Program-made: the position numbers and the translations under genes
Notes under the pieces: model-generated
Told to the model about the DNA's origin: nothing
What the model saw: the letters and a program-made list of their open reading frames with translations, nothing else
Database searches by the model: none
Shown here: positions 11,276-64,000 of the stretch, one piece after another
Layout of the letters: the number at the start of each line of letters is the position of its first letter
Position numbering within the stretch: the first letter of the stretch is position 1
NCBI GenBank assembly: GCA_028819345.1
Contig: JAPPLW010000004.1
Location: 3,530 to 67,529 of the forward strand
Source of the DNA: a bacterium
GTDB lineage: Bacteria; Actinomycetota; Acidimicrobiia; Spongiisociales; ZC4RG35
Direction of reading: 5' to 3'
Length of the DNA: 64,000 nt

Positions 11276-11351
11276 GTTGAATCTCCTTTCGTTCGAACCC
11301 TTGAGGTCTTGTCGTCTGAATGCGTCATTTAAGATTGGTCGACAGTGGCTT

Positions 11352-12158
11352 TCAGGTGGTTTCGTGCCATTTTCCAACTACCAGCCTACCCAGGAAACCG
11401 AATCCCCAGAAAACCAGAATGCCCAGCAGAGAGGAGAAGACCAGAGCGGTGAAAAGCTGTTCGGTGAGCAGCCGGGCCCGGTAGAGGTCGAGCAATCTTC
11501 CCAAACCGGGGATCCCCTTGCGGAAGAAGAACTCGCCGACGATGGCGCCGATTACCGAGAGACCTGCTGAAATACGGAACCCGGCGAAAATGGCGGGGAG
11601 GGCATTGGGAAACTGGAGCTTCACCAGGCGGGTCAGCCGGCTTGACCGGTGCAAAGTGAAGAGGTCATGGAAGGAGGCGGGCACCGACTGGAGACCGAAG
11701 AGGGTGTTGGTGATGATCGGGAAAATGGAGATGATCACGCACACCACCACCCGGCTGGTGAACCCGAACCCGAGCCACAGACCCACCAGGGGAACGATGG
11801 CCAGGATGGGCACGGTCTGGATGATCACCGCGTAGGGGTAGAAGGAGGTCTCCACCCACTTGGCCTGGCTCATCATGATGGCCGAAGTCATTCCCAGCAC
11901 TATGGCGATCACCAGGCCGGTCATGGAGACCGCCACCGTCCAGAGCAGTCCCTCCAGCACTTGGAACAGGTTGTCCTGGTTGACGAAACCGACGTCTATC
12001 ACCTCGTTCGGGGTGGGCAGCAGGAACTGCCGGTCGGGATCGAGGCTCAGGCTGATGGCGTACCAGATGCCCAACACCACGAGGAACACCACGATCGGGG
12101 GTCCCAGCCGGTAAGTGGAGGAGCGGAGCCGGGAGGAGGTGTGTCGGGCGGTGCTCAT
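11352..12158 (-). CDS. ABC transporter permease (nitrate/sulfonate/taurine NitT/TauT family)
   Basis: Six hydrophobic segments and the EAA-like loop LTRLVKLQFPNALPAIFAGFRISAGLSVIGAIVGEF. Abuts the ATPase gene (stop 12159 / start 12158). Confidence 0.85.
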   Translation of the reverse strand: MSTARHTSSRLRSSTYRLGPPIVVFLVVLGIWYAISLSLDPDRQFLLPTPNEVIDVGFVNQDNLFQVLEGLLWTVAVSMTGLVIAIVLGMTSAIMMSQAKWVETSFYPYAVIIQTVPILAIVPLVGLWLGFGFTSRVVVCVIISIFPIITNTLFGLQSVPASFHDLFTLHRSSRLTRLVKLQFPNALPAIFAGFRISAGLSVIGAIVGEFFFRKGIPGLGRLLDLYRARLLTEQLFTALVFSSLLGILVFWGFGFLGRLVVGKWHETT

Positions 12159-23842: not shown

Positions 23843-25029
23843 AGATAACCGCTGCCACCGTGTACATAGTGGCGCTGCCCACTCGACGCCACCACTCGTG
23901 GGCCTCCAAGATGACCGCTCCGATCGGTCGTCATGCCATCCTCCGGCTGCGGACCGACGAGGGACTTGAGGGATGGGGGGAGGCGCCCGCCGGCATCACC
24001 TGGGGCGGGTCGGCGATGCGGTACTACGGCGAGTCGCCCGAGACGGTGCGGATCGTGGCCCTCGACTACCTGCTTCCGGCCGTGGGGGGCTGCGACCCGC
24101 GTGAGATCGCGGTGGTCCACGCCCGGATGGACAGAGCCGTGAAGGGCCACCCCTATGCAAAGGCGATGATCGACATGGCCAGCCACGACCTGGCAGGACG
24201 GGCCATGGGCGTGGGAGTCTCAACCCTCCTCGGGGGATCTCACCGTCGAGGGATAGAGTTGGCCCACTCATTGGGGATAATGCCGATTGAACGCTGCCTG
24301 GAGGAGGCGGAGCAGGCGGTTTCGGAGGGCGCCCTCACCATCAAGTGCAAGACCGGCCTGGACCCCTTCCGGGATGTGGAGTTGGTGCGTCGCCTGCGGG
24401 AGTTGGTGGGCCCCGGGATCAAGATCAGGGTTGACGGCAACGAGGGGTATTCCCATGTCGCCGAGGCGGTGAGGGTAACCCGCGCCCAGGAGGAATATGA
24501 CATCATGCTGTGCGAGCAACCGGTGGCCGGCGCTGAGGGCCTGGCGGCGGTGGCCCAAAGGATCGAGGCGCCGGTGATGGCCGATGAGTCGGCTTGGACC
24601 GTCGAGGACATCTGGGAGTTGGCCGACTTGGGCGCTGCCGACTACATCTCGTGCTACGTCACCAAGCCGGGAGGGCTGTTCCGCGCCCGCCAGCAGGCCG
24701 AGACCGCCCGTCGCCTGGGGATGCTGTGCGACATAGGAGGCTCGATTGAGACCGGGATCGGCAACGCCGCAAACCTGGCTCTGGGAGCGGCGGTGGAGAA
24801 CGCCTCCCTTCCCAGCGTTTGTCCGGTATCCGGCCCGGAGGGCAGTGCCCGCCCGGAGATAGCGGGCATCTACTACACCGACGACTTGATCTCAGCCCCC
24901 TTCCGTTTCGAGGACGGTCGGGTGTCGGTCCCCGAAGGTCCGGGGCTGGGGGTGGAAGTCGAAGTGGCCAAGGTGGAGAAGTACTCGGTGGCGGAGGCGG
25001 TCAGCCTCGACCTGGGTGAGGATGGGTGA
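23839..25029 (+). CDS. mandelate racemase / muconate lactonizing enzyme (enolase superfamily) protein
   Basis: LRLRTDEGLEGWGEAP, KCKTG, IRVDGNEGY, LCEQPV, ADES and CDIGGSIETGIG match the MR/MLE capping and barrel motifs. The GTG start overlaps the upstream stop (GTGA). Confidence 0.85.
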   Translation: MKITAATVYIVALPTRRHHSWASKMTAPIGRHAILRLRTDEGLEGWGEAPAGITWGGSAMRYYGESPETVRIVALDYLLPAVGGCDPREIAVVHARMDRAVKGHPYAKAMIDMASHDLAGRAMGVGVSTLLGGSHRRGIELAHSLGIMPIERCLEEAEQAVSEGALTIKCKTGLDPFRDVELVRRLRELVGPGIKIRVDGNEGYSHVAEAVRVTRAQEEYDIMLCEQPVAGAEGLAAVAQRIEAPVMADESAWTVEDIWELADLGAADYISCYVTKPGGLFRARQQAETARRLGMLCDIGGSIETGIGNAANLALGAAVENASLPSVCPVSGPEGSARPEIAGIYYTDDLISAPFRFEDGRVSVPEGPGLGVEVEVAKVEKYSVAEAVSLDLGEDG

Positions 25030-48993: not shown

Positions 48994-49734
48994 TCAGAGG
49001 TGCATCAGCCCGGCGCCGAAGGCCGCCAGTAGGTTCTCTCTGGTCAGAACCTCGAAGGGGGGTCCTGAGATAACCTGTTTCTTCCCCAAGAGGAGCACGT
49101 GGTCGGCGGTTCTTGCCTCTCCGAGGTCGTGGGTGGACACCAGGACCGCGCAACCGTGAGCCTTCTCCTCGTGAATCGTCCTGTCCACCGCTTCCGCCGA
49201 AACAACATCCAGGCCGGTGAGGGGCTCATCCAAGAGCATGATGCGGTGGTCTTGCGCGATTCCCTGCGCCATGAAGACCCGCTGGCGCTGGCCCCCGGAG
49301 AGTTCGGTGAGGTGACGGCTGGACAGGTCGGTGATGCTCATCCTCTCCATGGCCTCTTGCACCCGCGCCTTGTCATCGGTCTTCAATGGCTTGACCATGC
49401 CCCGGTTGGCGTACCGTCCCATTGCCACGACCTGGGCGACCGTCAGGGGCAGAGACTGGTTGATTTCCTTGGACTGGACCACGTAAGCAACCTGCCTTCG
49501 AGCCTTTTGCGGGGAGGCGCCCATAACGCGGATGTGGCCGCCGGTGGGATCCACCAAGCCGACCATGGAGTGAAGCAGGGTCGACTTACCGGCGCCGTTC
49601 GGGCCGATCAGGGCGGTGATCGCCCCCATCGGGGCCGTGAAGGACGAGGGCTCCAGCACCACGTTCGCACCGTAACGCAACTCCAGGCCCACAGCGTCGA
49701 CGGCGTTTTCGAAGCTCTCTACCGGTGTCGTCAC
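48994..49734 (-). CDS. znuC: metal (Zn/Mn) ABC transporter ATP-binding protein
   Basis: ORF 48994..49917; GTG 49734 overlaps the Fur-family gene stop (GTGA). Walker A GPNGAGKSTLLHS, signature LSGGQRQRVFMAQ, Walker B IMLLDEPLTGLD. Confidence 0.8.
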   Translation of the reverse strand: MTTPVESFENAVDAVGLELRYGANVVLEPSSFTAPMGAITALIGPNGAGKSTLLHSMVGLVDPTGGHIRVMGASPQKARRQVAYVVQSKEINQSLPLTVAQVVAMGRYANRGMVKPLKTDDKARVQEAMERMSITDLSSRHLTELSGGQRQRVFMAQGIAQDHRIMLLDEPLTGLDVVSAEAVDRTIHEEKAHGCAVLVSTHDLGEARTADHVLLLGKKQVISGPPFEVLTRENLLAAFGAGLMHL

Positions 49735-50168
49735 GAAGCGCAATCGGGGCACAGACCCTCGATCTCCAGCGAGTGGCCGGTTACCCGGTATCCGCTGGCG
49801 GCCGCTGCGCTCTCGGCCAACCGGGCGAGGCGGCGTTCGGAGTCGGGAGACAGGGAGACATCGGAGATTGCCATGCACGGCACGCACACCAGGTGATGAT
49901 GATGCCCCGACAGCCACTCGGCCAGTTCGAACCGGTTGGACCGGTCGGCGCCGTGATGGAGGGTGAGCACCTGGGTGTCGGTCAAGACCCGCACGTCCCT
50001 ATATATGGAGGAGTAGGGGATCCTCGGCTCCGTCACCCGATAAAGCTCCTCGACGGTGAGAGGACCCGGGGTGTTGTCCAGCGCCTCGATGAGCGCCCTG
50101 CGGTTGGTGGTGTAGCGCACCCCCTGTGAGCGGAGGCTCTTTTCCACCTTGGCGTGAAGTCCAACCAT
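49731..50168 (-). CDS. zur: Fur-family metalloregulator, probably Zur
   Basis: ORF 49731..50210; ATG 50168 gives MVGLHAKVEKSLRSQGVRYTTNRRALIEAL. HHHHLVCVPC and GLCPDC metal sites. Co-operonic with znuC and preceded by a Zur-type box. Confidence 0.8.
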   Translation of the reverse strand: MVGLHAKVEKSLRSQGVRYTTNRRALIEALDNTPGPLTVEELYRVTEPRIPYSSIYRDVRVLTDTQVLTLHHGADRSNRFELAEWLSGHHHHLVCVPCMAISDVSLSPDSERRLARLAESAAAASGYRVTGHSLEIEGLCPDCAS

Positions 50169-50179
50169 CGCGATTAATA

Positions 50180-50194
50180 TGATAATGATTATCA
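50180..50194. promoter_or_regulatory. Zur/Fur box, perfect 7-1-7 palindrome TGATAATGATTATCA
   Basis: Seen directly in the only strongly AT-rich stretch of this region. It lies 12 nt upstream of the zur ATG (minus strand) and 40 nt upstream of the znuB GTG (plus strand). Same architecture as actinobacterial Zur boxes (TGAAAATGATTTTCA-like). Confidence 0.65.
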
Positions 50195-50234
50195 AATTGT
50201 TAAAGGACACTTTAAGGCTCGACGAAGTAGCGGC

Positions 50235-51077
50235 GTGGACTGGTTGCTAGAGCCCTTTGAATTCGCCTTCCAGCAGCGGGCCCTCCTGGCCGGAGTGCTG
50301 GCCGGGTTGCTCACCTCGGTGGTGGGCACCTGGGTGGTGATCCGGGGGATGTCATTTATGGGAGACGCGGTGGCGCACGGGATCATTCCGGGCGTGGCCA
50401 TCGCCCTGGTCCTGGGAGTCAATCCTCTGTGGGGAGCCCTGGCCGCCGGGATTGTGATGGTCTGGGGGATCAACCAGGTTCACCAGCACACCAAGCTGAG
50501 CGCCGACATCGGGATCGGACTCCTGTTCGTGGGCATGCTGTCCCTGGGGGTGGTGATCATCTCGCTGACCGCTTCCTTCTCGGTCTCGATCACCGCGGTT
50601 CTGTTCGGCGACCTTCTGGGAGTGACCACCGGCGGCATCCTGCTGCAGACCGTGAGCCTGGTGGTCGCCGCGGCGATCTCGGTGGTGATGTACCGGTCGT
50701 TCCTTGCTCTTGCCTTCAATGAAGCCAAGGCCGAGATGATGGACCTCCGGCCCCGTATGGCCCACCTGATGTTGCTGGCCCTTATCACCGGGACCATGGT
50801 GGTGCTGTTCCAGGGGGTGGGCGCCATCCTGGTGTTCGGCTTGCTGATCGGGCCTCCGGCCACCGCCATAATCCTGGTCCGCCGGGTGGTGCTGGTGATG
50901 GCGGTCTCCGCCGTGATAGCGGTCTTCTCGGTGGTGAGCGGCCTGGTGATCAGCTATCAGTTCTCGACGGCCGCCTCGGCCAGCATCGTGGTCATCTCGG
51001 TGGCCCTGTTCTTCGTCGCCCTCACGGGATCGCGGATACGCGATCACTTCCGTCGGAAGACTCCTGCCCTGGCCTGA
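50235..51077 (+). CDS. znuB: metal (Zn/Mn) ABC transporter permease
   Basis: FQQRALLAGVLAGLL, MSFMGDAVAHGIIPGVA and 8 hydrophobic segments are typical of ZnuB/MntB (ABC-3 family). Confidence 0.85.
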   Translation: MDWLLEPFEFAFQQRALLAGVLAGLLTSVVGTWVVIRGMSFMGDAVAHGIIPGVAIALVLGVNPLWGALAAGIVMVWGINQVHQHTKLSADIGIGLLFVGMLSLGVVIISLTASFSVSITAVLFGDLLGVTTGGILLQTVSLVVAAAISVVMYRSFLALAFNEAKAEMMDLRPRMAHLMLLALITGTMVVLFQGVGAILVFGLLIGPPATAIILVRRVVLVMAVSAVIAVFSVVSGLVISYQFSTAASASIVVISVALFFVALTGSRIRDHFRRKTPALA

Positions 51078-51086
51078 ACTCGCCCG

Positions 51087-52073
51087 CTACTCGGGCGACG
51101 GGCGACGGGCTTTCGCCAACACCTCGTCGATCGAGCTTCGGTCCACATCGCCCAGATTCTGGACATAGTCGTAGCCGAACCGGCCCTTGATGCACAGATG
51201 GCCGTTGGTCACGTCGTGGTCCTGGGGGGAGGTCACCTTCACGATCCGGTTGTCCTGGGTGTGCAGCTCCAGGTTGCAGCCCACCCCGCAGTAGGAGCAG
51301 ACCGTCCGGGTGACCGACTGGGCGTCCGGGTTCCACATCTCCGCCCGCCGCAGTTCCCACTCGGAGCGGAACATGAGAGCGCCTGTGGGACAGACCCCGA
51401 TGCAGTTGCCACAGAACACGCAGGCCCCGTCGCCCAGGGGAAGATCCATCTCGGTTGAGATCCGGGCGTCGAACCCCCGGCCGGCCACCGCAATGGCGTA
51501 GGTCCCCTGCGCGTCGATCCCGCACGCCTCCACGCATTTGTAACAGAGGATGCAGCGGGAGTAGTCGCGGACATAGAGGGTGTTGTCCACCTTGGTCGGC
51601 TGATGAACGCCTTCGGCGGTCCGGCCGTTTACCTCGCCGTGATGTCCCGGATGGCGCCGGTCCCTCTCGCCGGCAGCGCTGGGCTCCGACTGCGGGCCGT
51701 AGCGGTCCGGCTCGGCTTCGTATTGGCGCATCCACTCTCCGACCTCGTCTTCGGCCGCCGAGAGGTCGACCGAGGAGCCCAGGAATTCCAGGATCATCTT
51801 CCGGCTGTGGCGGACCCTGTCGGAGTCCGTCTTCACCACCATGCCCTCTTCGGCGATCCGTGAACATGCGGGGACCAGGGTGCGGTTGCGTTCCACCTCC
51901 ACCACGCAGATCCGGCACACGTTCACCGGCGTGAGGGTCTCCAGGTAACAGAGGGTCGGCACTTCGGTGCCCATCTGGCGGCATGCCTCCAGGAGAGTGG
52001 CGCCCGGCCGGACTTCCACCGGAGCGCCATCGATGGTCAGGCGCACGGACTGTTGAGTCTCGGGTCGGGTCAT
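51087..52073 (-). CDS. formate dehydrogenase Fe-S protein: NuoG-N-terminal-like clusters plus the Mo/W-bisPGD-type FS0 [4Fe-4S] motif (N-terminal fragment of an FdsA/FdhA-type alpha subunit)
   Basis: ORF 51087..52262; ATG 52073 overlaps the upstream stop (ATGA). 2Fe-2S LCYLETLTPVNVCRICVVEV..PAC, ferredoxin motifs CILCYKCVEAC and CVFCGNCIGVCPTGAL, then CSYCGVGCNLELH...GHLCIKGRFGYDYVQN. It stops after 22 more residues. Confidence 0.8.
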   Translation of the reverse strand: MTRPETQQSVRLTIDGAPVEVRPGATLLEACRQMGTEVPTLCYLETLTPVNVCRICVVEVERNRTLVPACSRIAEEGMVVKTDSDRVRHSRKMILEFLGSSVDLSAAEDEVGEWMRQYEAEPDRYGPQSEPSAAGERDRRHPGHHGEVNGRTAEGVHQPTKVDNTLYVRDYSRCILCYKCVEACGIDAQGTYAIAVAGRGFDARISTEMDLPLGDGACVFCGNCIGVCPTGALMFRSEWELRRAEMWNPDAQSVTRTVCSYCGVGCNLELHTQDNRIVKVTSPQDHDVTNGHLCIKGRFGYDYVQNLGDVDRSSIDEVLAKARRPSPE

Positions 52074-53881
52074 TCCATGAGTCCAAGTTCGAGGGCCGAG
52101 CGCAGCGCGATGGCGGCGGTGTGCCCCAGGCCGCAGATGGATGCGTCCCTCATGGCCAGGTCGATTTCTTCGATCAGTTCCAGGTCTCCGGGCTGGGGGT
52201 CGCGCCGTATTCTCGCCAGCGCCTCTTCGACCCGTACAGTACCAACCCGGCACGGAACGCACTGTCCGCAGGTCTCGTCACGGAAGAAGGCGGCGATCCT
52301 TGCCAGGATGTCTCCGAAGTCGGTGTGCTGATCGAAGGCCATTATCACCCCCGAGCCCAGGGAGACCCCGGCTTCGGAGGCCGCCTCGAAGGTGAGGGGC
52401 ATCTCCAGTAGGTCGGGAAGCACGAAGGAGCCGGCGGCTCCTCCCAGGAGTACGGCCCGCAGCCGGCGGCCCTCGGGTAATCCGCCGGCCAAGGCGATCA
52501 AATCGCCCAGAGTGGCGCCGAACTCCACCTCGTAGGTGCCCGGCCGGCGCACGGATCCCGACAGGCAGAAGAGCTTGGGCCCGGTCGACTGGGGAGTGCC
52601 CAACGAAGCGAAGTTGCTCCCCCCGTCACTGACGATATCGAGGACGTTGCAGAGCGTCTCCACGTTGTTGATGACGGTCGGTTTCCCGAACAGTCCCGAG
52701 ACCGTCGGGAATGGCGGTTTGTTGCGGGGTTCTCCCCGCAGGCCTTCGATGGAGTTCATCAGGGCGGTCTCCTCGCCGCAGATGTACGCGCCCTGCCCGC
52801 GTCGGAGATCGATGTCGAAGGAGACTCCGTTTCTCATCGACTCCCCCAGGAGACCTGCCCGCCGCGCCTGGTGGATGGCTGACCGGAGGCGCCGGGTGGC
52901 CAGGGGGTACTCCCCCCTGATGTAGAGATAGCCCTGGCGTGCGCCGACCGCATAACCGGAGATGGTCATCGCCTCGATCACCGAGAAGGGATCGTCCTCC
53001 ATCAGCACCCGGTCCTTGAAGGTGCCGGGCTCCGACTCGTCGGCGTTGCAGATCAGGTAGCGGACCGCGTCGGGGGAGTTGGCCACCGCCTCCCATTTGA
53101 TCCAGGCGGGGAAGGCCGCCCCGCCCCGTCCGCGGAGACCGGACGCTTTGACCTCGGCCACAACCGCCGCAGGTCCCATCTCCACCGCCTCCTCCAAGGC
53201 CCTGTAGCCGCCCGCCTCCAGGTAGGAGTCGAGGGACCCGGGGTCCACCGTCCCCACCCTCCGCAGGAGCCGGAGATGCGGCTCTCCGGCCTGGGGCACA
53301 GCAAGGCTCTCTGGTTGACCGTTGGTCGAGACGATGCTCCCGTCCGGTTCCATGGGCCGCGCCTGGGGATCGATGGAGACCAGCACATGGTCTTCTTCTC
53401 CGGCCCGCTGGACGTAGGCCGCAGGGGCGCGGTCGCACTGGCCCAGGCAGGGCGAAGGCAGCCAACGGGTGTTGGGTATCCGGCCGTTGGCTTCCAGACC
53501 TTCCATCAACTCCAGGGCCCCGGCCCTGCGACAGACGATGTCGTCACAGACGTGGACAACAACCGGTGGGGAAGGGTCGACCGAGATCAGGGAATAGAAG
53601 GTGGCGACTCCCCAAGCTTCGGCTGGCGGGACCGACAGTTCCCGGCAGATGTGCATCAGCGCTCCCTCCGAGACCCAACCTATCTCGGATTGGACGGTCT
53701 CCAGGGCCGGCAGCAGGAGGTGGCGTCGATCGGCGACGCTCTGCATCCCCGTGGCGAAGATCCTGAGATTGGAGGCGGTCCGGACCCGCTGGTGGCTCTC
53801 CACCCCGGCCGGGCCGAGGACCGACTCCACCGCCTCCCGCTCGGCTGCGGTGGGTTGAGCATCTGTGAAGCGCAGGTCCAT
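52070..53881 (-). CDS. NAD-reducing formate dehydrogenase diaphorase subunit, NuoE-like + NuoF-like fusion (FdsG/FdsB-type)
   Basis: NuoE part: HVCDDIVCRRAG...PCLGQCDRAPA. NuoF part: GLRGRGGAAFPAWIKW, YLICNADESEPGTFKDR, and 4Fe-4S ETCGQCVPCRVG...ICGLGHTA. Confidence 0.85.
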   Translation of the reverse strand: MDLRFTDAQPTAAEREAVESVLGPAGVESHQRVRTASNLRIFATGMQSVADRRHLLLPALETVQSEIGWVSEGALMHICRELSVPPAEAWGVATFYSLISVDPSPPVVVHVCDDIVCRRAGALELMEGLEANGRIPNTRWLPSPCLGQCDRAPAAYVQRAGEEDHVLVSIDPQARPMEPDGSIVSTNGQPESLAVPQAGEPHLRLLRRVGTVDPGSLDSYLEAGGYRALEEAVEMGPAAVVAEVKASGLRGRGGAAFPAWIKWEAVANSPDAVRYLICNADESEPGTFKDRVLMEDDPFSVIEAMTISGYAVGARQGYLYIRGEYPLATRRLRSAIHQARRAGLLGESMRNGVSFDIDLRRGQGAYICGEETALMNSIEGLRGEPRNKPPFPTVSGLFGKPTVINNVETLCNVLDIVSDGGSNFASLGTPQSTGPKLFCLSGSVRRPGTYEVEFGATLGDLIALAGGLPEGRRLRAVLLGGAAGSFVLPDLLEMPLTFEAASEAGVSLGSGVIMAFDQHTDFGDILARIAAFFRDETCGQCVPCRVGTVRVEEALARIRRDPQPGDLELIEEIDLAMRDASICGLGHTAAIALRSALELGLME

Positions 53882-53902
53882 AAGGAGATCGGTGGGCGGA
53901 GG

Positions 53903-55801
53903 TTAGCCAACCGGAGCAGTCATCTTCTCCACTCGCACCGCGGTGGCCTTGAACTCGGCGGTGCCGCTCTTCGGATCCCACGCTTCGATGGTGAGTTGAT
54001 TGATGTCGACTTCCTCAGGGAAGTGAAGGGACATGAAGACCAGCCCGGGCCGCAGGCTCCCGTCCACCCGGGCGGGAACGGTGATGGATCCTCTCCGGGA
54101 CGTGACCCGTACCTCTTCTCCCTCCGAGACCCCCCACTCAGAGCAGTCCTCGGGTGAGATGTCGATGGTGCCGCCGATCCGGATCGGGGACTTCATGGAG
54201 CCGCTCTGGACCCCCGTGTTGTAGGAATCGAGGTGGCGGCCGGTGGTGAGCCGGATGGGATAGTCCTCGGTCAGGCGGTCCACCGGAGGCGCCCACTCCA
54301 CCGGGGTGAAGGGTGCCAGCGGGCCGCCCGGCGGGTCTGCCCACAGGCGGGAATGGAGGAACAGCTCCCCGGGATGGTCCTCGTCGTAGCAGGGCCATTG
54401 CAACCCGTCCTCCTCCAATCGACTGTACGACATGCCCCCGTGCATGGGGGAGAGGCTGCGCATCTCGTCCCAGACCTCCTCGGCGGCCGGGCGACCCCAG
54501 TCATGGCCCATGGCGGTGGCCAGGGAGCAGATGATGTGCGAGTCGGTGCGGGCCTCGCCCGGAGGCCGGAGGGCGGGACGCACCCGCTGCACCCGTCGTT
54601 CGCTGGAAGTGACCGTGCCCTCGGCCTCGCACCAGTCGGCCGCGGCCGGGAACACCACGTCGGCCATCTGGGCGGTCCGGGTCAGGAAGATGTCCTGGAC
54701 CACTATGAAATCCAGTCCCTCCAGGAGGCCGCGGGCCCGGTTGACGTCGGCCTCGGACTCGGCGGGATTCTCTCCGATGACATACAAGCCTCTCAGGTGT
54801 CCCTCTTCCATGGCTTCGAACATCTGGGTGAGGTGAAGTCCCTTGCGAGGCGGGACGGACGCCTGCCATGCCGCTTCGAAACGGCCCCGGATCTCGTCGG
54901 ACTCGACGTCCTGGAAACCGGGGAACTTGTTGGGGATCGCCCCCATGTCGCCGCCCCCCTGCACGTTGTTCTGGCCCCGGAGGGGCACCAGGCCCGACCC
55001 GTAGCGGCCCACGTGTCCGCAGAGCAGGGCCAGGTTGATGAGAGCCAGCACATTGTCGGTGGCGTTGTGATGCTCGGTTATTCCCAGCGTCCAGCACAAC
55101 TGGGCGCGATCGGCCTTTGCGTAGGTATGGGCCAGGGAGCGGATGGCTTCGGCGGGTACGCCGGTGACCTCCTCGCCGCGTTCGAGGGTCCACTCCTCCA
55201 CGCTTTCGGCGTATTCGTCGAAGTTGAGGGTCGCCCGCTCGATGAACTCCCGGTTCTCCAGTCCATTTGCCAGGATCTCGCGGGCCACCGCGTTGGAGAG
55301 GGCGATGTCGGACCCGACGTCGATTCCCAGCCACAGGTCGGCCCATTCCGCGGACTCGCTCCGCCGAGGGTCCACGCAGAACAAGGTGGCGCCGCGGCGG
55401 ACCGCCCGGATGATCCGGTGAAAGAAGATGGGATGTGCGGCCCGGGCGTTCGATCCCCACAGGATCACCACCTCTGCGTCATCCATCTCCTCATAGGAAC
55501 TGGTTCCCCCTCCGGCTCCGAAAACCGTCGCCAGACCGGCGACGCTGGGAGCGTGTCAGGTCCGGTTACAGGAATCTACGTTGTTGGTGCTCAACACCAC
55601 CCGAGCGAACTTCTGTGCCAGATAGTTGGTCTCGTTGGTGGCCTTGGAGCAGGAAAACAGCCCTATAGCCTCTCCGCCGTGAGCATCGCGCACCCCGCCC
55701 AGGCCACGGGCCGCCGCGGCCAGAGCCTCGGCCCAGGTGGCTTGTCGAAGTGCGCCGTTCTGTCGCACCAGCGGATGGGTCAGCCGGGTCTTTCTTCCCA
55801 T
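53903..55801 (-). CDS. fdhA: formate dehydrogenase catalytic (Mo/W-bisPGD) subunit, selenocysteine-containing, lacking the N-terminal FS0 cluster domain
   Basis: Joins track ORFs 55556..55852 and 53903..55486 through the in-frame TGA 55558..55556: ...STNNVDSCNRT-U-HAPSVAGLATVFGAGGGTSSYEEMDDAEVVILWGSNA..., which parallels the FdhF NNVDCCARV-U-HGPSVAGL site. ATG 55801 lies 6 nt after AAGGAGAG. The C-terminal molybdopterin dinucleotide-binding domain is present. Confidence 0.8.
55515..55558 (-). other. UGA selenocysteine codon plus downstream SECIS-like stem-loop
   Basis: The mRNA reads UGA CAC GCUCC cag CGUCGCC GGUCU GGCGACG guuuuc GGAGC. There is a 7-bp upper stem (55544..55538 / 55532..55526), a GGUCU apical loop and a 5-bp lower stem (55552..55548 / 55519..55515), starting 14 nt after the UGA. 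Confidence 0.65.
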
Positions 55802-55918
55802 TCTTGACTCTCCTTGACTTGAAGGGGCTGGTCCGGCCCCATGGGGGAGCATTTTAGCAATCTGTAAAGAGGGGGCTCACCGTTCGACGCGGAGAATCGA
55901 GCGGCCGCCGGGCCGATC

Positions 55919-57685
55919 TCAGAACAGGCCCACCACCTTACCGGACGAGTCGAGATCCACATTGAGATAGGCCGGCGCTGACGAGAGGCCGGGCATGGTG
56001 CGCACCGCGCCGACCAACGGATAGATGAACCCGGCTCCCACCGAGGCGCGCACTTCCCGGATGGGCAGCGTGTATCCCCGCGGCGCCCCCCTGAGACTGG
56101 GGTCATGGCTGATCGAGAGGTGGGTTTTGGCCATGCAGATCGGCAGGTCACCGAACCCGGCCTGCTCGTACTGGGCGAGTTGACGGTTGGCCAGGGCGGT
56201 GTACGAGACATCCGCCGCGCCGTAGACCTTCCGGGCGATGGTCGAGATCTTCTCCTTGAGGGACAGTTCATCGGGGTAGAGCAGGGAGAAGTCGCCCGGT
56301 AGGGTGCAGGCGTCCTCGACCGCCTCGGCCATCTCCAGGGCGCCCTGGCCTCCGTTGGCCCAGTGGGTGGTGGCGGCGACGGCATGGGCTCCGGCCTCGG
56401 AGGCCGCCGCCCGGAGGTATTCGATCTCCCGCTCGGTGTCGGTGGGAAACACGTTCACCGCCACCACGGCCGGCACCCCGAACTGCTTCACGTTGTTGAG
56501 GTGGGCCTGGAGGTTTGCCACGCCTTCTCCCAGCAACTCCAGGTTCTCCTCGACGTAGGCTCTGGGCAGGGGCCGCCCCGGTCTCACCGGCGGGCCTCCT
56601 CCCTGGGCTTTGAGGGCTCGGATGGTGGTGGTCAGCACCACGCAGTCCGGGACCAGCCCCGAGGTCCGGCATTTTATGTTGAAGAACTTCTCCATTCCCA
56701 TGTCGGCGCCGAACCCCGACTCGGTGACCACGTAGTCGGACAGTTGGAGGGCCACCCGGTCGGCCAGCACCGAAGAATTTCCGTGGGCGATGTTGGCGAA
56801 GGGCCCGGCGTGCACGAAGACCCCCTGTCCCTCCAGGGTCTGCATCAGGGTCGGATGAAGAGCGTCCTTCATCAGCACTGTCACCGCTCCCGCCACCCCC
56901 AGGTCCTCAAGGGTGAGCGGATCCCCACCCTTGGACGTGCCGAACACGATCTTCCCGCAACGCTCCCTCAGGTTGCGGAGAGCGGAGGCGTAGTCCTGTC
57001 CGTCCACCAGCGCCAGGATGGCCATGATCTCGCTCGCTACCGTGATGTCATAGCCGGTTTCCCGCGGCAGCCCGTCGGCCCGGCCTCCCAGTCCCAGCAC
57101 GATGCTGCGAAGGGCCCGGTCGTTCACGTCGACGACCCGCCGCCACAGGATGCGGTGCTGGTCGATATTCAGACGCTTCAGTCCCCTCTCCGCCAGTTTC
57201 GCGTCGCTGAGCCTCTCCTCGAAGTACCAGCGGGCGTCGATGGCGGCGGCCGCCAGGTTGTGGGCCACCCCGATGGCGTGCAGGTCACCGGTCAGGTGAA
57301 GGTTGAACTCCTCCATGGGGATCACCTGGCTGTAGCCACCTCCCGCTGCACCTCCCTTGATGCCGAAGGTGGGACCCATGCTGGGCTGGCGAATGCAGGC
57401 CATCACGTCTCGACCCCGGGCTCCCAGGCCCTGGGTCAGGCCGATGGTGGTGGTGGTCTTCCCCTCCCCGAGGGGAGTCGGAGTGATGGCGGTCACGTCC
57501 ACGTAGCGGCCCCGCGGGCGGTTGCGAACCCGCTTCAGGATGTCGAGGTGCACCTTGGCCTTGTCGTGCCCGTAGGGGATCAGCTCTTCGGTTCTGATTC
57601 CCACCCGGTCGGCTATGTCGGTGATGGGAATTACCTGGGCGGCTTGGGCGATGTCCAGGTCGGAGGGGATGGGGGACGAGTTCAA
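55919..57685 (-). CDS. fhs: formate--tetrahydrofolate ligase
   Basis: PTPLGEGKTTTTIGL, EFNLHLTGD.HA, and the C-terminal MAKT.LS.S and G.I.TMPGL patterns at 588 aa are classic FTHFS. Confidence 0.95.
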   Translation of the reverse strand: MNSSPIPSDLDIAQAAQVIPITDIADRVGIRTEELIPYGHDKAKVHLDILKRVRNRPRGRYVDVTAITPTPLGEGKTTTTIGLTQGLGARGRDVMACIRQPSMGPTFGIKGGAAGGGYSQVIPMEEFNLHLTGDLHAIGVAHNLAAAAIDARWYFEERLSDAKLAERGLKRLNIDQHRILWRRVVDVNDRALRSIVLGLGGRADGLPRETGYDITVASEIMAILALVDGQDYASALRNLRERCGKIVFGTSKGGDPLTLEDLGVAGAVTVLMKDALHPTLMQTLEGQGVFVHAGPFANIAHGNSSVLADRVALQLSDYVVTESGFGADMGMEKFFNIKCRTSGLVPDCVVLTTTIRALKAQGGGPPVRPGRPLPRAYVEENLELLGEGVANLQAHLNNVKQFGVPAVVAVNVFPTDTEREIEYLRAAASEAGAHAVAATTHWANGGQGALEMAEAVEDACTLPGDFSLLYPDELSLKEKISTIARKVYGAADVSYTALANRQLAQYEQAGFGDLPICMAKTHLSISHDPSLRGAPRGYTLPIREVRASVGAGFIYPLVGAVRTMPGLSSAPAYLNVDLDSSGKVVGLF

Positions 57686-57945
57686 GGGGCGCCTCCTGGG
57701 CTCGGGGGATTCGGTATCGCAAGTGACACCGCCGCATCGGTTTTACATAATGTTAACCCATTGGCAGGGTGTTTGGCATTCCGACGGCCCTCTTTCTGGA
57801 AGCGGGGTTGTGGAAAGGCCGCGCCGCCGACGGCGTCGGCGACCGGATTCCGGGGTGGGGAGGAAGGGTTTTGTTATGGGGGTGGGCGTTTCTAATCTTT
57901 CACATAGGCCGTGGCAGCGCTCTATTTCCTGGTGACAACCCTCTG

Positions 57946-59061
57946 ATGGACTGGGTGGATCTGTTATTGGTGGCTGCCCGCGTGGTGGGGGTGTTCGCCC
58001 TGCTGGTGGTGCTCACCATCGTCAACATCTGGTTGGAGCGCAAGGTCGTGGCGGACATGCAGAACCGCGTGGGGCCGGCCCGGGCGGGGCCATGGGGGAT
58101 ACTCCAGACCCTCGCCGACGGGGTGAAGTTGTTCTTCAAGGAGCAGGTGACGCCGCGGAAGGTGGACCTGGGCGCCTACCTGCTGGCGCCTTTCCTGGCG
58201 GTGGTCCCGGCCTTCTTGATCTTCATGATGGTTCCCCTCGGTCCGGGCCTCGAGATCGCGGGTCGCCAGGTGCCGCTTCAGGGAGCGGACCTGAACATCG
58301 GGATCCTGTTCATCCTGGCGATGTCGTCGATGGCCGTGTACGCGGTGGTGCTGGCCGGGTGGTCGTCGGGGTCCAAGTACCCGTTGCTGGGAGGCGTGCG
58401 GGCCACCGCGCAGGCCATCTCCTACGAGGCGGCCATGGGTCTGGCGATGGTGGCGGTCGTGATGTTCTCCGCCACCGCTCCCGGGGCCGAGAGCGGGACC
58501 CTCTCCCTCGCCGAGATCGTGGAGCGCCAGTCGGGGACCTGGTCGGGGACGGTTGCCTTCCTCGACCCGGTGGTGAGCTTCATTCCCCGTTGGTATGTCT
58601 TCCCCCAGGTGGTGGCGTTCGTGATCTTTTTCCTGGCGGCGGTGGCGGAGACCAACCGGGCGCCGTTCGACCTGGTGGAGGCGGAGCAGGAGTTGGTGGG
58701 CGGATTCCACACCGAGTACTCGGGAATCCGCTTCGCCATGTTCTTTCTGGCCGAGTACATCAACATCCTCTCCATGTGCGCCATCGCCGCCACGCTCTTC
58801 TTTGGCGGGTGGAACGGCCCGACCTGGGAAGGAGTCGTCCCCGGGTGGGTTTCGGCCATCCTGCCCGTGGTGTGGCTGATGTTGAAGAGCTATGTGCTGG
58901 TGGTTGCGTTCTTCTGGATCAGGGCCACGCTCCCGCGGTTGCGCTACGACCAGTTGATGACCCTGGGGTGGAAGCGGTTGATACCGGCCTCGATGCTGTG
59001 GCTGGTGATCTCCACCGTGGTGATCGGGTTCCGCCAGTTCGGGCTTCCCTTTATAGGGTGA
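57946..59061 (+). CDS. nuoH: NADH-quinone oxidoreductase subunit H
   Basis: ORF 57769..59061; ATG 57946. ERKVVADMQNRVGPARAGPWGILQTLADGVKLFFKE, ETNRAPFDLVEAEQELVGGFHTEYSG and LPRLRYDQLM are present. Confidence 0.9.
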   Translation: MDWVDLLLVAARVVGVFALLVVLTIVNIWLERKVVADMQNRVGPARAGPWGILQTLADGVKLFFKEQVTPRKVDLGAYLLAPFLAVVPAFLIFMMVPLGPGLEIAGRQVPLQGADLNIGILFILAMSSMAVYAVVLAGWSSGSKYPLLGGVRATAQAISYEAAMGLAMVAVVMFSATAPGAESGTLSLAEIVERQSGTWSGTVAFLDPVVSFIPRWYVFPQVVAFVIFFLAAVAETNRAPFDLVEAEQELVGGFHTEYSGIRFAMFFLAEYINILSMCAIAATLFFGGWNGPTWEGVVPGWVSAILPVVWLMLKSYVLVVAFFWIRATLPRLRYDQLMTLGWKRLIPASMLWLVISTVVIGFRQFGLPFIG

Positions 59062-59069
59062 GGTGAGAA

Positions 59070-59708
59070 ATGGGAATACTGAGAGAATTCTGGAAGGGCT
59101 TCAAGGTAACCGGCTCGATAGGGCTGCGAGGTTTCTTCGGCAAAGACATCGTCACCACCCGGTACCCCTCGGAGATGCGGGAGAAGCCCACCCGGTTCCA
59201 TGGTCGCCACGTCCTTAACCGCTATCCCGACGGAATGGAGAAGTGCATCGGATGCGAACTTTGCGCGGGGGCCTGCCCGGCTCGATGCATCTACGTGCGG
59301 GGGGCGGACAACCCGCCCGATGACCCCCGGAGTCCGGGAGAGCGCTTCGGGTACGTGTATGAGATCAACATGCTGCGCTGCATCTTCTGCGGGCTGTGCG
59401 TGGAGGCCTGTCCGACGGAGGCCATCACCATGACCCACCTCTTCGAGATGTCGGTGACCAACCGCAACGACGCCATCCACACCAGGAAGGAACTGTTGAT
59501 GGCGGAGGACGGGTCGGTTCCCCACATCTACCCCGAGGACCCGTTCGCCGACCTCTCCGAACTGGACGCCGCCGACGGCTGGCTGCGGGCCACTTCTCCC
59601 AGCGGCGTAGCGGCCTACGAGGGGGAGACCATGTGGCAGGCCACCCCCGGCCCGGCCTCCTGGACGCCCGAGCCCGATCAGGAGACCAGGGACTCCCAGC
59701 ATGGTTGA
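59070..59708 (+). CDS. nuoI: NADH-quinone oxidoreductase subunit I (2x[4Fe-4S]) with C-terminal extension
   Basis: CIGCELCAGACPARCI and CIFCGLCVEACPTEAI, followed by a ~70-aa tail. Confidence 0.9.
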   Translation: MGILREFWKGFKVTGSIGLRGFFGKDIVTTRYPSEMREKPTRFHGRHVLNRYPDGMEKCIGCELCAGACPARCIYVRGADNPPDDPRSPGERFGYVYEINMLRCIFCGLCVEACPTEAITMTHLFEMSVTNRNDAIHTRKELLMAEDGSVPHIYPEDPFADLSELDAADGWLRATSPSGVAAYEGETMWQATPGPASWTPEPDQETRDSQHG

Positions 59709-60234
59709 ACTGGTGATCTTCGTGCTGATGGGGGCGGGGACATTGGCCGGCGGGGTGACGGTGGTCCTGGCCCGCAACCCGGTCCGCTCCGCGTTGGGTC
59801 TCCTGGGAGCCTTGGTCTCCCTGGCTGTCATATACGTGGTCAACCTGGCCCACCTGGTGGCTGCCGTGCAGGTGGTGGTTTATGCGGGAGCGGTGTTGAC
59901 TCTGTTCCTGTTCGTGATCATGTTCATCGGCGTGGACCGCGCCGAGGACACTTCCGAGACCATCCCCCTCCAGCGCAAACTGGTGGCCGGGCTCGCCACC
60001 GTGGTGGCCCTGGGAGCGGCGGTCCTGGTGTCGAGGGGCCGGTTCACCTGGACCCCCGCTTCGGGGGAGGCGGCCGAGATCCCCAACGGCACGGTTCAGG
60101 CTCTGGGAGGAGAGCTCTTCACCACCTGGGTGCTGGGAGTTGAGGTGACCGCTCTGTTGCTGACCATCGCCGCGGTGGGGGCGATCGCCCTGGCTTTCCA
60201 CCGACGGTCCGCCGAGTCGCCGACGGAGGACTGA
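59701..60234 (+). CDS. nuoJ: NADH-quinone oxidoreductase subunit J
   Basis: Five hydrophobic helices. [10 protein letters not shown] and [16 protein letters not shown] are typical NuoJ. Position between nuoI and nuoK. Confidence 0.85.
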
Positions 60235-60538
60235 TGCCCGTCGTAACCCCGGGCTGGTACATGACGCTGGCGGCCGTCCTGTTCGTCCTGGGGATGACCG
60301 GGGTCCTGATCAGACGGAACGCCCTGGTGATGTTCATGTGCGTGGAGTTGATGCTCAATGCGGTCAACCTGACCTTCGTGGCCGCCGGCCGGGCGGCGGG
60401 AGTGCTGGACGGGCAGGTGGCGGTGTTCTTCGTGCTGGTGGTGGCGGCCGCCGAGGTGGTGGTGGGCCTGGCCATCATCGTCGCCATATTCAGGAGGCGG
60501 GAGACCGCCTCCGTCGACGAGTTGGCGGCGCTCCGGGG

Positions 60539-60542
<4 letters not shown>
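60234..60542 (+). CDS. nuoK: NADH-quinone oxidoreductase subunit K
   Basis: 102 aa with [31 protein letters not shown] and [11 protein letters not shown]. Confidence 0.9.
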
Positions 60543-62440
<1,898 letters not shown>

Positions 62441-62450
62441 GTCGCCGGCC

Positions 62451-63995
62451 ATGCTGACCCTGCTGGTTCTCACGCCCCTCCTGGGGGCGGTGGTGGTCTC
62501 CCTGGTCCCGGCCCGTCGTCGGGAACTGCACCTGCCGCTGGGCATAGCCCTGTCCGTGGCGCCCCTGGGGCTGGCGGGAGCGATGTTTTTCTCCTTCGAC
62601 GCGGGGGAGGCTTCCTTCCAGATGGTCGAGAAGGTGGTGTGGTGGGAACCGTGGGGGGTGTCCTGGCAACTGGGCGTGGACGGGATCTCGCTGGGGATGG
62701 TGGCTCTCACGGCCATCCTGTTCCCCCTCAGCCTGGCGGTCTCCGACTCCATCTCCCACCGGCGCAAGGCATTCGTGGTGGCCATGCTCTTTCTGGAGAC
62801 GGGCCTGATCGGCACCTTCCTCGCCCTGGACCTGCTGCTGTTCTTCGTGTTCTTCGAGGTGATCCTGGTCCCCATGTACCTGATAATCGGTGTGTGGGGA
62901 GGCAAGCGCCGGGTTTACGCGGCCGTGAAGTTCTTCATCTACACCGCGTTCGGTTCGGCGCTGCTGCTGGCGGCGATCATCGCCCTGGCTGTCATGCATG
63001 CCTCCCAGGCCCCCGACGGCCTGCTCAGCTTTGACTACCTGGCTTTGCTGGCTCTGGACATCTCTCCGACCGCCCAGATGTGGCTGTTCGGAGCATTCGC
63101 CCTGGCCTTCGCCATCAAGGTGCCCCTGTTTCCCTTCCACACCTGGCTTCCCGACGCCCATGTGGAAGCGCCCACGGCCGGGTCGGTGCTCCTGGCGGGA
63201 GTCCTCCTGAAGCTCGGAACATACGGGTTGCTCCGGTTCAACCTCACGCTCTTTCCCGAGGCCACGGTCTCCCTGGTGCCGGTCCTGGCGGTCCTGGCCG
63301 TGGTGGGAATCATCTACGGGGCGGTGGTGGCCATCGTCCAGCCCGACCTGAAGAAGTTGGTCGCCTATTCGTCGGTCAGCCACCTGGGGTTCGTGGTGCT
63401 GGGGATTTTCGCCCTCACTTCAGCCGGACTCCAGGGCGCGGTTATTCAGAACGTCAACCACGGGCTCACCACCGGCGCGCTGTTCCTCCTCGTCGGGATG
63501 CTGTATGACCGGCGTCACACCAAACAGATCAGCGACTTCGGGGGCCTGGCCACACCGGCTCCCCTCATGGCCGGGTTCTTCCTGTTCATGGCCTTCGCCT
63601 CCATCGGCCTGCCCGGTCTCAACGGGTTCGTGGGGGAATTCCTGGTGTTGGTGGGTAGCTTCCCCTCTCTTCCGGGCCTGACGGTGGTGGCGGCGTTCGG
63701 CGTCGTGCTGGCCGCCATATACATGTTGTGGGCCTACCAGCGGGTGTTCACGGGACCGCTGAAGGGAGCCGAGAACCGGAAACTCACCGACCTCTCGGCC
63801 AAGGAGACGGCGGTGATGGCGCCCCTGGCGGCCTTGGTCTTGCTGCTTGGCCTGTATCCGGGCATCCTCCTGGAGCGGACCGCTCCATCCGTGGAGGCGA
63901 TTCTCGACCGCATCGAGCAGTACACCGACTATGAGGCGCCCGATCCGGGAAGATTGGCGGACGTTTTCAACACCGCCTCGGAGGATGAATCGTGA
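62451..63995 (+). CDS. nuoM: NADH-quinone oxidoreductase subunit M
   Basis: FFEVILVPMYLIIGVWGG, KVPLFPFHTWLPDAHVEAPTAGSVLLAGVLLKLGTYG and KKLVAYSSVSHLGF are present. Confidence 0.9.
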   Translation: MLTLLVLTPLLGAVVVSLVPARRRELHLPLGIALSVAPLGLAGAMFFSFDAGEASFQMVEKVVWWEPWGVSWQLGVDGISLGMVALTAILFPLSLAVSDSISHRRKAFVVAMLFLETGLIGTFLALDLLLFFVFFEVILVPMYLIIGVWGGKRRVYAAVKFFIYTAFGSALLLAAIIALAVMHASQAPDGLLSFDYLALLALDISPTAQMWLFGAFALAFAIKVPLFPFHTWLPDAHVEAPTAGSVLLAGVLLKLGTYGLLRFNLTLFPEATVSLVPVLAVLAVVGIIYGAVVAIVQPDLKKLVAYSSVSHLGFVVLGIFALTSAGLQGAVIQNVNHGLTTGALFLLVGMLYDRRHTKQISDFGGLATPAPLMAGFFLFMAFASIGLPGLNGFVGEFLVLVGSFPSLPGLTVVAAFGVVLAAIYMLWAYQRVFTGPLKGAENRKLTDLSAKETAVMAPLAALVLLLGLYPGILLERTAPSVEAILDRIEQYTDYEAPDPGRLADVFNTASEDES

Positions 63996-64000
63996 TCCCC
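63992..64000 (+). CDS. nuoN: probable start of nuoN (only 9 nt visible)
   Basis: GTG at 63992 overlaps the nuoM stop (GTGA), and nuoN is the expected next gene. No sequence is available to confirm it. Confidence 0.3.

Follow-up and report, generated by a model that had tools for sequence, protein, structure and literature searches.

The 64,000-nucleotide stretch of DNA considered here (the window) belongs to a scaffold of 98,995 bp in a metagenome-assembled genome (MAG) of an uncultured sponge-associated Acidimicrobiia bacterium (ENA ERZ23495468, ROBB21-1_SAMN13943215). Its minus strand carries genes for a formate dehydrogenase (FDH), among them a catalytic subunit gene that is interrupted by an in-frame UGA, and the mRNA just downstream of this codon can fold into a hairpin resembling a bacterial selenocysteine insertion sequence (SECIS). 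The genes and the parts of the hairpin are listed in Table 1.

Table 1. Features of the formate dehydrogenase locus (window coordinates; Sec, selenocysteine; bisPGD, bis-pyranopterin guanine dinucleotide; FMN, flavin mononucleotide)
Feature	Position	Strand	Basis
In-frame UGA, predicted Sec codon, residue 82 of 632	55556..55558	-	Sec/Cys site of PDB FdhF-type chains; E. coli Sec140
FDH catalytic (Mo/W-bisPGD) subunit gene, UGA read through, 632 residues	53903..55801	-	PDB and TIGR01591 matches
SECIS-like hairpin, whole element	55515..55552	-	RNAfold on the window, RNAalifold on 81 sequences
Lower stem GCUCC/GGAGC, 5 bp	55552..55548 with 55519..55515	-	RNAfold
Upper stem CGUCGCC/GGCGACG, 7 bp	55544..55538 with 55532..55526; conserved core 55543..55538 with 55532..55527	-	
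Apical loop GGUCU	55537..55533	-	RNAfold
NuoE-NuoF-like fusion, 603 residues (2Fe-2S thioredoxin-like and FMN/NADH-binding 51-kDa domains); predicted diaphorase partner	52070..53881	-	
Separate Fe-S subunit, 328 residues (NuoG-N-terminal-like 2Fe-2S and 4Fe-4S, plus Molybdop_Fe4S4)	51087..52073	-	
Formate--tetrahydrofolate ligase (fhs), directly upstream of the catalytic gene	55919..57685	-	NF010031, 819 bits (cutoff 800)

From 55585 down to 55515 the codons of the minus strand are AAC AAC GTA GAT TCC TGT AAC CGG ACC TGA CAC GCT CCC AGC GTC GCC GGT CTG GCG ACG GTT TTC GGA GCC. Both before and after the TGA the frame is open, and it gives the translation NNVDSCNRT*HAPSVAGLATVFGA. This is the continuous reading across 55558..55556, NNVDSCNRT-U-HAPSVAGL, that an earlier reading of the same DNA (the first-pass annotation) had proposed, and we confirm it. 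The gene probably starts at ATG 55801, which is preceded by a Shine-Dalgarno sequence, AAGGAGAG, at 55815..55808 with a 6-nt spacer; its stop codon is at 53905..53903. A mechanical list of open reading frames (ORFs) cuts the gene into 55852..55556 and 55486..53903, and the public gene calls on the source scaffold divide it in the same way, into 81 and 527 amino acids, as they do in every relative.

The read-through protein, with Cys put at the UGA, matches PDB chains along its whole length. The matches include FdhF of the hydrogen-dependent CO2 reductase (7qv7, E = 6e-148), the FDH of a methanogen complex (7bkb, E = 1.5e-147), an F420-dependent FDH (9t1s, E = 5e-143), E. coli FDH-H (1aa6, E = 2.6e-130) and FdsA-type chains (about 1e-119), and all the matches from 6e-148 to 1e-119 are FDHs or FDH-like. 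In these alignments the UGA falls on the Cys/Sec residue of the PDB chains, the catalytic His comes next, and the motif LRGQNNVQG is conserved. E. coli K-12 fdhF likewise has a TGA within the active-site motif, NNVDCCARV*HGPSVAGL there and NRT-U-HAPSVAGL here, so that the earlier assignment of this TGA to the Sec site of FdhF-type enzymes, Sec140 in E. coli, holds. The Pfam families PF00384 (molybdopterin oxidoreductase) and PF01568 (molydopterin-binding) are present on the called fragments. The TIGR01591 (Fdh-alpha) profile scores 647.5 bits over its positions 50-672, which is below the cutoff of 666.25; the score falls just short because the first 50 profile positions are missing. Likewise, the PDB alignments begin at about residue 57-64 of the chains, and the catalytic polypeptide lacks the N-terminal [4Fe-4S] (Molybdop_Fe4S4) domain.

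Among database proteins, the nearest matches (84-95% identity) and a second group (71-74%) all break off at this same point. The comparative set was drawn from a scan with one genome for each species and comprises 80 loci, mostly labelled as Acidimicrobiia MAGs, whose proteins are 67-98% identical to that of the window and down to 62% identical to one another. TGA stands at the same codon in all 80, long-read chromosomes included. Conservation of the protein is highest over the 23 codons from the TGA to the next ATG, where the majority-residue fraction is 0.93, as against 0.76 upstream and 0.78 downstream, which argues that the region after the TGA is translated. A reassigned genetic code is ruled out, since TGA is the ordinary stop of 30 of the 50 ORFs in the window.

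Could the TGA nevertheless be a genuine stop, leaving either a pseudogene or two polypeptides, one of 81 amino acids and one of 527 amino acids starting from ATG 55486? Gene callers do split the gene so in every relative, TGA is the commonest stop codon in the window, and no Sec machinery was found in the sequence searched (see below). We regard this as very improbable, however, given that the TGA is kept in 80 of 80 loci across up to 38% protein divergence, that the 23 codons which would go untranslated are the best conserved and hold the catalytic His, and that the catalytic Sec/Cys residue would be absent from both fragments.

Two features of the comparative set should be mentioned. The MAG RHO1_bin_22 contributes two contigs (L003 and L006), and the entire fhs-fdh region is present on both, 98% and 97% identical to that of the window; these are probably two strains that were binned together. 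Twelve loci (L016, L023, L031, L040, L042, L048, L053, L056-L058, L080 and L081) have Sec-type genes that are 67-71% identical and carry the MAG labels 'Ca. Marinacidobacterales', Acidobacteria/Acidobacteriota, Gemmatimonadota, Vicinamibacteria, Dormiibacterota and Gammaproteobacteria. Mis-binning, mislabelling or horizontal transfer could account for these non-Acidimicrobiia labels.

When given the 59 nt that begin at the UGA, RNAfold forms the two stems and the loop of Table 1. Eleven nucleotides separate the UGA from the upper stem and 18 separate it from GGUCU, so that the Gs of the loop are the 19th and 20th nucleotides after the UGA. The first-pass annotation had described a 7-bp stem capped by GGUCU, extended by a 5-bp lower stem and lying fourteen nucleotides downstream. 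The structure is recovered by RNAfold, but only six of the seven upper pairs are conserved in the relatives, and the figure of fourteen counts the UGA itself. Its comparison of the element with the fdhF-type SECIS and its GGUC-containing loop is well founded: in E. coli fdhF, too, 18 nt are followed by GGUCU, and the loop is made from the same Gly-Leu codons, in an identical register. In its general form, the bacterial SECIS is a stem of 6-8 bp whose loop carries a conserved G at a distance of about 20 nt from the UGA (PMC4605307). The element described here, with its 6-7 bp stem directly 3′ of the UGA and inside the ORF, fits this description. GGTCT loops closed by a stem of at least 6 bp occur only twice on both strands of the window, and hairpins of 6 bp with a 5-nt loop occur at 0.34% of its positions.

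The conservation of the hairpin can be judged in an ungapped alignment of 60 nt starting at the UGA, which comprises 81 sequences (77 of them distinct) and whose columns provide the pair numbers used here. The hairpin, like the TGA, is kept in all 80 related loci, and the GGUCU loop is invariant in the 81 sequences. RNAalifold, with no structure supplied, finds the same two helices. In this two-helix structure 92.3% of the pair cells are paired; sliding the 3′ partners by 1-3 columns lowers this to 30-66%, and the observed covariation score is not attained in any of 500 shuffles. At pair 19-29, 63 sequences have G-C and 13 have A-U, the change replacing Ala by Thr on one arm and Ala by Val on the other; pair 20-28 is C-G or U-G, with U-A in one further contig; and pair 17-31 is U-G or U-A. 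Pair 9-42, between the third base of an Ala codon and that of a Gly codon, is U-A in 55 sequences, U-G in 6, C-G in 3, G-C in 2, G-U in 1 and unpaired in 10, and the C-G pair has three separate origins, the three cases being unrelated to one another. Pair 15-33 is unpaired in 51 of the 77 distinct sequences, and therefore the conserved upper stem is one of 6 bp.

The synonymous sites tell the same story. In a codon alignment of the whole gene, the third base is invariant in only 4 of the 287 columns with a conserved amino acid, and three of these four belong to hairpin codons, those for Val, Gly and Leu. Over the 38 conserved Gly columns the third-base entropy averages 1.73 bits, and only the GGU of the loop is fixed; GGT is the rarest Gly codon in the genes of the window (12%). 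The third bases of two stem codons whose residues vary are invariant too.

Full-length relatives with Cys at the catalytic position, 63-65% identical, are found in Streptomyces, Nonomuraea, Saccharopolyspora, Thermopolyspora and others, with the peptide DSCNRT-C-HAPSVAGL; among the homologues, only Sec or Cys occupies this position. The five Cys-type orthologues obtained as DNA have TGC or TGT at the catalytic codon and encode the SVAGL peptide with GGC, GGA or GGG as the Gly codon, never GGT. They lack the hairpin, since only 4-5 of the 7 upper pairs and 2-3 of the 5 lower pairs can form. The same peptide thus exists without the hairpin, and it follows that the hairpin goes with the UGA and not with the peptide. 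The first-pass annotation had held that the stem depends on the synonymous codons used, which would argue for selection on the RNA, and had suggested a comparison with Cys-containing orthologues. This comparison, the frozen third bases and the covariation all bear the argument out: the hairpin structure is maintained by selection beyond the coding constraint.

Several results weigh against reading the UGA as a Sec codon directed by this hairpin. One concerns stability: the fold of the single window sequence is no stabler than those of its dinucleotide shuffles (z = -0.30; 68 of 200 shuffles fold as well). This thermodynamic test is uninformative in sequence of 66% G+C, and it is the comparative data, that is, conservation, covariation and frozen synonymous sites, rather than stability, that place the hairpin beyond chance. 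The low z-score and the origin of the window from a metagenome scaffold are what could be said for the view that the TGA is a sequencing or assembly error for TGC or TGT and the hairpin a chance product of G+C-rich coding sequence. This view is hardly credible at all. The same TGA in 80 independent assemblies, long-read chromosomes among them, already refutes an error, and the synonymous-site pattern is specific to TGA-bearing genes.

A second point is that the upper stem is uninterrupted in both the RNAfold and the RNAalifold structures, without the bulged U that is important in the upper stem of the E. coli element. In addition, the A-U form of pair 19-29 is probably a single inherited event, as the 13 sequences that have it form one clade. 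The hairpin stretch has no Rfam match at gathering thresholds. In a permissive scan of a 171-nt stretch with 4227 Rfam families, of the kind that the first-pass annotation had proposed, the best family was SECIS_3 (RF01989), aligned UGA to UGA and over the apical GCC-GUCU-GGC region; its score, however, was 17.6 bits, as against a gathering score of 63, and by the Rfam criterion the element is not a member.

The remaining points concern the Sec machinery (selA, selB, selC and selD), whose presence in the genome the Sec reading implies. The searches for it covered the window and 7.6 kb more of the scaffold, together less than 5% of the genome, and 10 kb on either side of the gene in the 80 relatives. 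Neither the window nor any of 83 fetched loci has a tRNA-Sec according to ARAGORN. With E. coli SelA, SelB and SelD as queries, tblastn found no selA, selB or selD in the window and the loci; of the matches to SelB, those examined were TypA, and a further one, a gene with tRNA genes on its flanks, is probably EF-Tu. NCBIfam recognised no sel family among 20 large ORFs of the window, and there are no sel genes in the further 7.6 kb of scaffold or within 10 kb of the gene in the 80 relatives. In this lineage the sel genes are thus unlinked to the fdh gene.

The statement in the first-pass annotation that selenoproteins are uncommon in actinobacterial lineages proves to be too strong. FdhA is the most widespread bacterial selenoprotein, and Actinobacteria are among the three phyla richest in selenoprotein families (Zhang et al. 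2006, PMC1794560). About 40% of 244 mycobacterial genomes carry Sec machinery together with a Sec-FDH (PMC13449736). Within the Acidimicrobiia, selA, selC and selD have been reported in all 84 complete genomes of the order-level group Actinomarina, in all of which selB is divergent and scores below the profile threshold (preprint 10.64898/2026.04.03.716425). SelA and SelB are enriched in bins of sponge symbionts (PMC5649159). These reports lend indirect support to Sec decoding in the present lineage.

In a 2183-bp contig from farmland soil (L091:413-457, protein P0013), the protein is 69% identical and the Sec codon is replaced by CGA (Arg), in the presence of a perfect 7+5 bp hairpin with the GGUCU loop and with U-A at pair 20-28. 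Either a read error or a mutation of very recent origin, inactivating or recoding, would account for the CGA. This contig, with its intact hairpin, and the lack of Sec machinery in the sequence searched are the arguments for yet another explanation, namely that the UGA is read through without Sec, by a near-cognate tRNA (Trp, Cys or Arg) or a Cys-charged tRNA-Sec, with the hairpin acting as a generic stimulator. We consider this improbable. It leaves unexplained why the loop that SelB binds in E. coli fdhF should recur here unchanged, at the same distance from the UGA, and be invariant in 81 sequences. In addition, homologues have only Sec or Cys here, and Trp or Arg at the position of the Mo ligand would be expected to inactivate the enzyme.

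On the whole of this evidence, we are confident that the UGA at 55558..55556 is recoded as Sec by means of a SECIS hairpin within the FDH subunit gene. As the ribosome reaches the UGA, the mRNA just downstream would fold into the SECIS, with its lower stem, its upper stem of 6-7 bp and its GGUCU loop. A SelB-type factor carrying Sec-tRNA(Sec) would then bind the loop and deliver Sec, and translation would go on. The product would be a 632-residue Mo/W-bisPGD catalytic subunit of FDH with a Sec82-His83 active site and no Fe-S domains of its own.

The probable partners of this subunit are encoded directly downstream. The NuoE-NuoF fusion matches NCBIfam nuoF_fam (439.6 bits) as well as NuoE and FDH-gamma families, the Pfam families agree, and the gene follows the catalytic gene directly in all the related loci. 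The Fe-S gene that comes next is present in 74 loci, apparently all those whose contig extends far enough. Residues 257-306 of its product match positions 1-50 of TIGR01591 (57.8 bits), and PF04879 is found on the product. The Molybdop_Fe4S4 domain is normally the N-terminus of the FDH alpha subunit. Here, then, a domain boundary divides the alpha subunit into two halves, and the flavoprotein gene lies between the genes for them. The order of catalytic gene, NuoEF fusion and Fe-S gene is shared by all the Sec-type loci (the Fe-S gene in 74) and by the two Cys-type operons obtained in full, those of Thermopolyspora and Actinomadura, which indicates that the arrangement is old within the Actinomycetota. 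We found no discussion of this split-alpha architecture (51087..55801, minus strand) in the literature searched. The catalytic subunit, the Fe-S subunit and the NuoE/NuoF-like flavoprotein most likely assemble into an NAD(P)-linked FDH.

Upstream, fhs ends 117 nt before the ATG of the catalytic gene, and in 45 loci it lies within 10 kb of the FDH gene. The FDH and the adjacent formate-tetrahydrofolate (THF) ligase would together link the THF one-carbon (C1) pool, formate and CO2. In one relative a homologue of the MttB-like trimethylamine-corrinoid methyltransferases (L026:19627-21150, minus strand; 309.8 bits, cutoff 525) lies about 8 kb from the Sec-FDH operon, which would fit with the FDH serving to oxidise methyl groups via THF. 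The sulfurtransferase FdhD is normally needed for FDH maturation; fdhD is not present anywhere in the window and is found beside the Fe-S gene in 14 Sec-type relatives and in both full Cys-type operons (e.g., L089:11660-12484).

Other neighbours were noted. Genes for a Mn/Zn ABC transporter and a Fur-family regulator adjoin the FDH operon in the window (49000..51077) and in the two Cys-type operons (L089:12752-15793 and L090:12534-15506), a synteny that extends across classes of the phylum; a gene for a ZnuA-type binding protein is found beside the FDH operon only in the two Cys-type operons. Divergent from fhs is a nuoH-I-J-K-L-M(N) cluster (57769..64000, plus strand) with no nuoA-G upstream. 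The case for this cluster as a partner of the FDH is unsupported. The two adjoin in the 10 loci of the closest clade and nowhere else among the Sec-type loci or the Cys-type operons, and the adjacency is probably coincidental.

How does this system compare with those already known? With E. coli FDH-H (FdhF) it shares the MopB catalytic fold and a UGA followed by His in the same motif, and the SECIS-like hairpin lies on the same V-A-G-L codons, with the identical GGUCU 18 nt after the UGA. The E. coli enzyme differs in having its own N-terminal 4Fe-4S domain and hydrogenase 3 as its partner, in place of a separate Fe-S polypeptide and NuoE/F-like partners, and its SECIS has a bulged U, whereas the upper stem here is a perfect G+C-rich helix of 6-7 bp. 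The NAD-dependent FdsABG-type enzymes of Rhodobacter capsulatus and Cupriavidus necator (PDB 6tg9 and 9wxb) are alike in their catalytic domain (E about 1e-119) and in the NuoE-like, NuoF-like and NuoG-N-terminal-like electron-transfer modules encoded alongside. Their alpha subunit, however, is a single polypeptide of about 950 residues (chains of 957-958) that unites the Fe-S and MopB parts, instead of being split by the NuoEF gene. FdsABG-type enzymes also use Cys in the active site, where Sec is predicted here.

The mycobacterial Sec-FDH of the FdoG/FdnG type is likewise actinobacterial and has a SECIS directly after its UGA (PMC13449736), but it is an FdoG-type protein of about 1064 residues from another branch of MopB; NCBIfam formate_DH_Act matches the window protein over 144 residues only (166.7 bits, cutoff 1400). 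Cys-type split FDH operons occur in the Actinomycetes Thermopolyspora, Actinomadura, Streptomyces, Saccharopolyspora and Actinacidiphila. Their catalytic subunits are 63-65% identical and have the same short length, the active-site peptide DSCNRT-x-HAPSVAGL is identical to that of the window, and the three-gene order is the same in both operons obtained in full. They differ in having TGC or TGT without the hairpin, and in the fdhD gene that follows the operon there and is absent from this window.

The window was also screened for other selenoprotein genes, by a scan that is insensitive, as its composition filters did not flag the FDH TGA itself. At 25027..25029 (plus strand) a TGA joins two long ORFs in the same frame, of 408 and 372 codons, with coding-like composition. 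Since the downstream ORF starts with an ATG of its own and its product has an N-terminus of Rossmann type (MTRVVVMGGGAG), this TGA appears to be an ordinary stop followed by a new gene and not the mark of a second selenoprotein. A 788-codon ORF at 9014..11377 (minus strand) is strongly coding, with a G+C content of 0.87 at third codon positions, and has no NCBIfam match at E <= 1e-10. A gene of 791 amino acids just beyond the start of the window (L086:3367-5742) has no Pfam matches.

The mechanism proposed for this locus is already known, since the archetype of the bacterial selenoproteins is a Sec-FDH whose SECIS is of the fdhF type. What is apparently new is a Sec-FDH in this lineage, where such genes are systematically mis-annotated. 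The public gene calls that we have seen consist of fragments of 81 and about 527-528 residues, neither of which has the catalytic residue. With such split annotation, metabolic reconstructions of these Acidimicrobiia mis-score formate oxidation and miss the selenium requirement. The locus also provides a worked example of how a SECIS can be demonstrated from sequence alone, by means of frozen synonymous sites, compensatory changes and the loss of the hairpin in Cys orthologues.

Five third-codon positions of the hairpin, as well as its loop, are frozen across the 80 closest species-level genomes. Whether the Sec form of the three-gene, split-alpha, NuoEF-linked FDH is a trait of the whole class Acidimicrobiia, in sponge, marine and soil members alike, with the Actinomycetes carrying the Cys form, is in our judgement evenly balanced. 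If it is class-wide, current annotation has wholly missed a previously undescribed architecture of NAD-linked Sec-FDH, and a large, abundant and mostly aerobic group of actinobacteria would depend on selenium for its C1 (formate/THF) metabolism.

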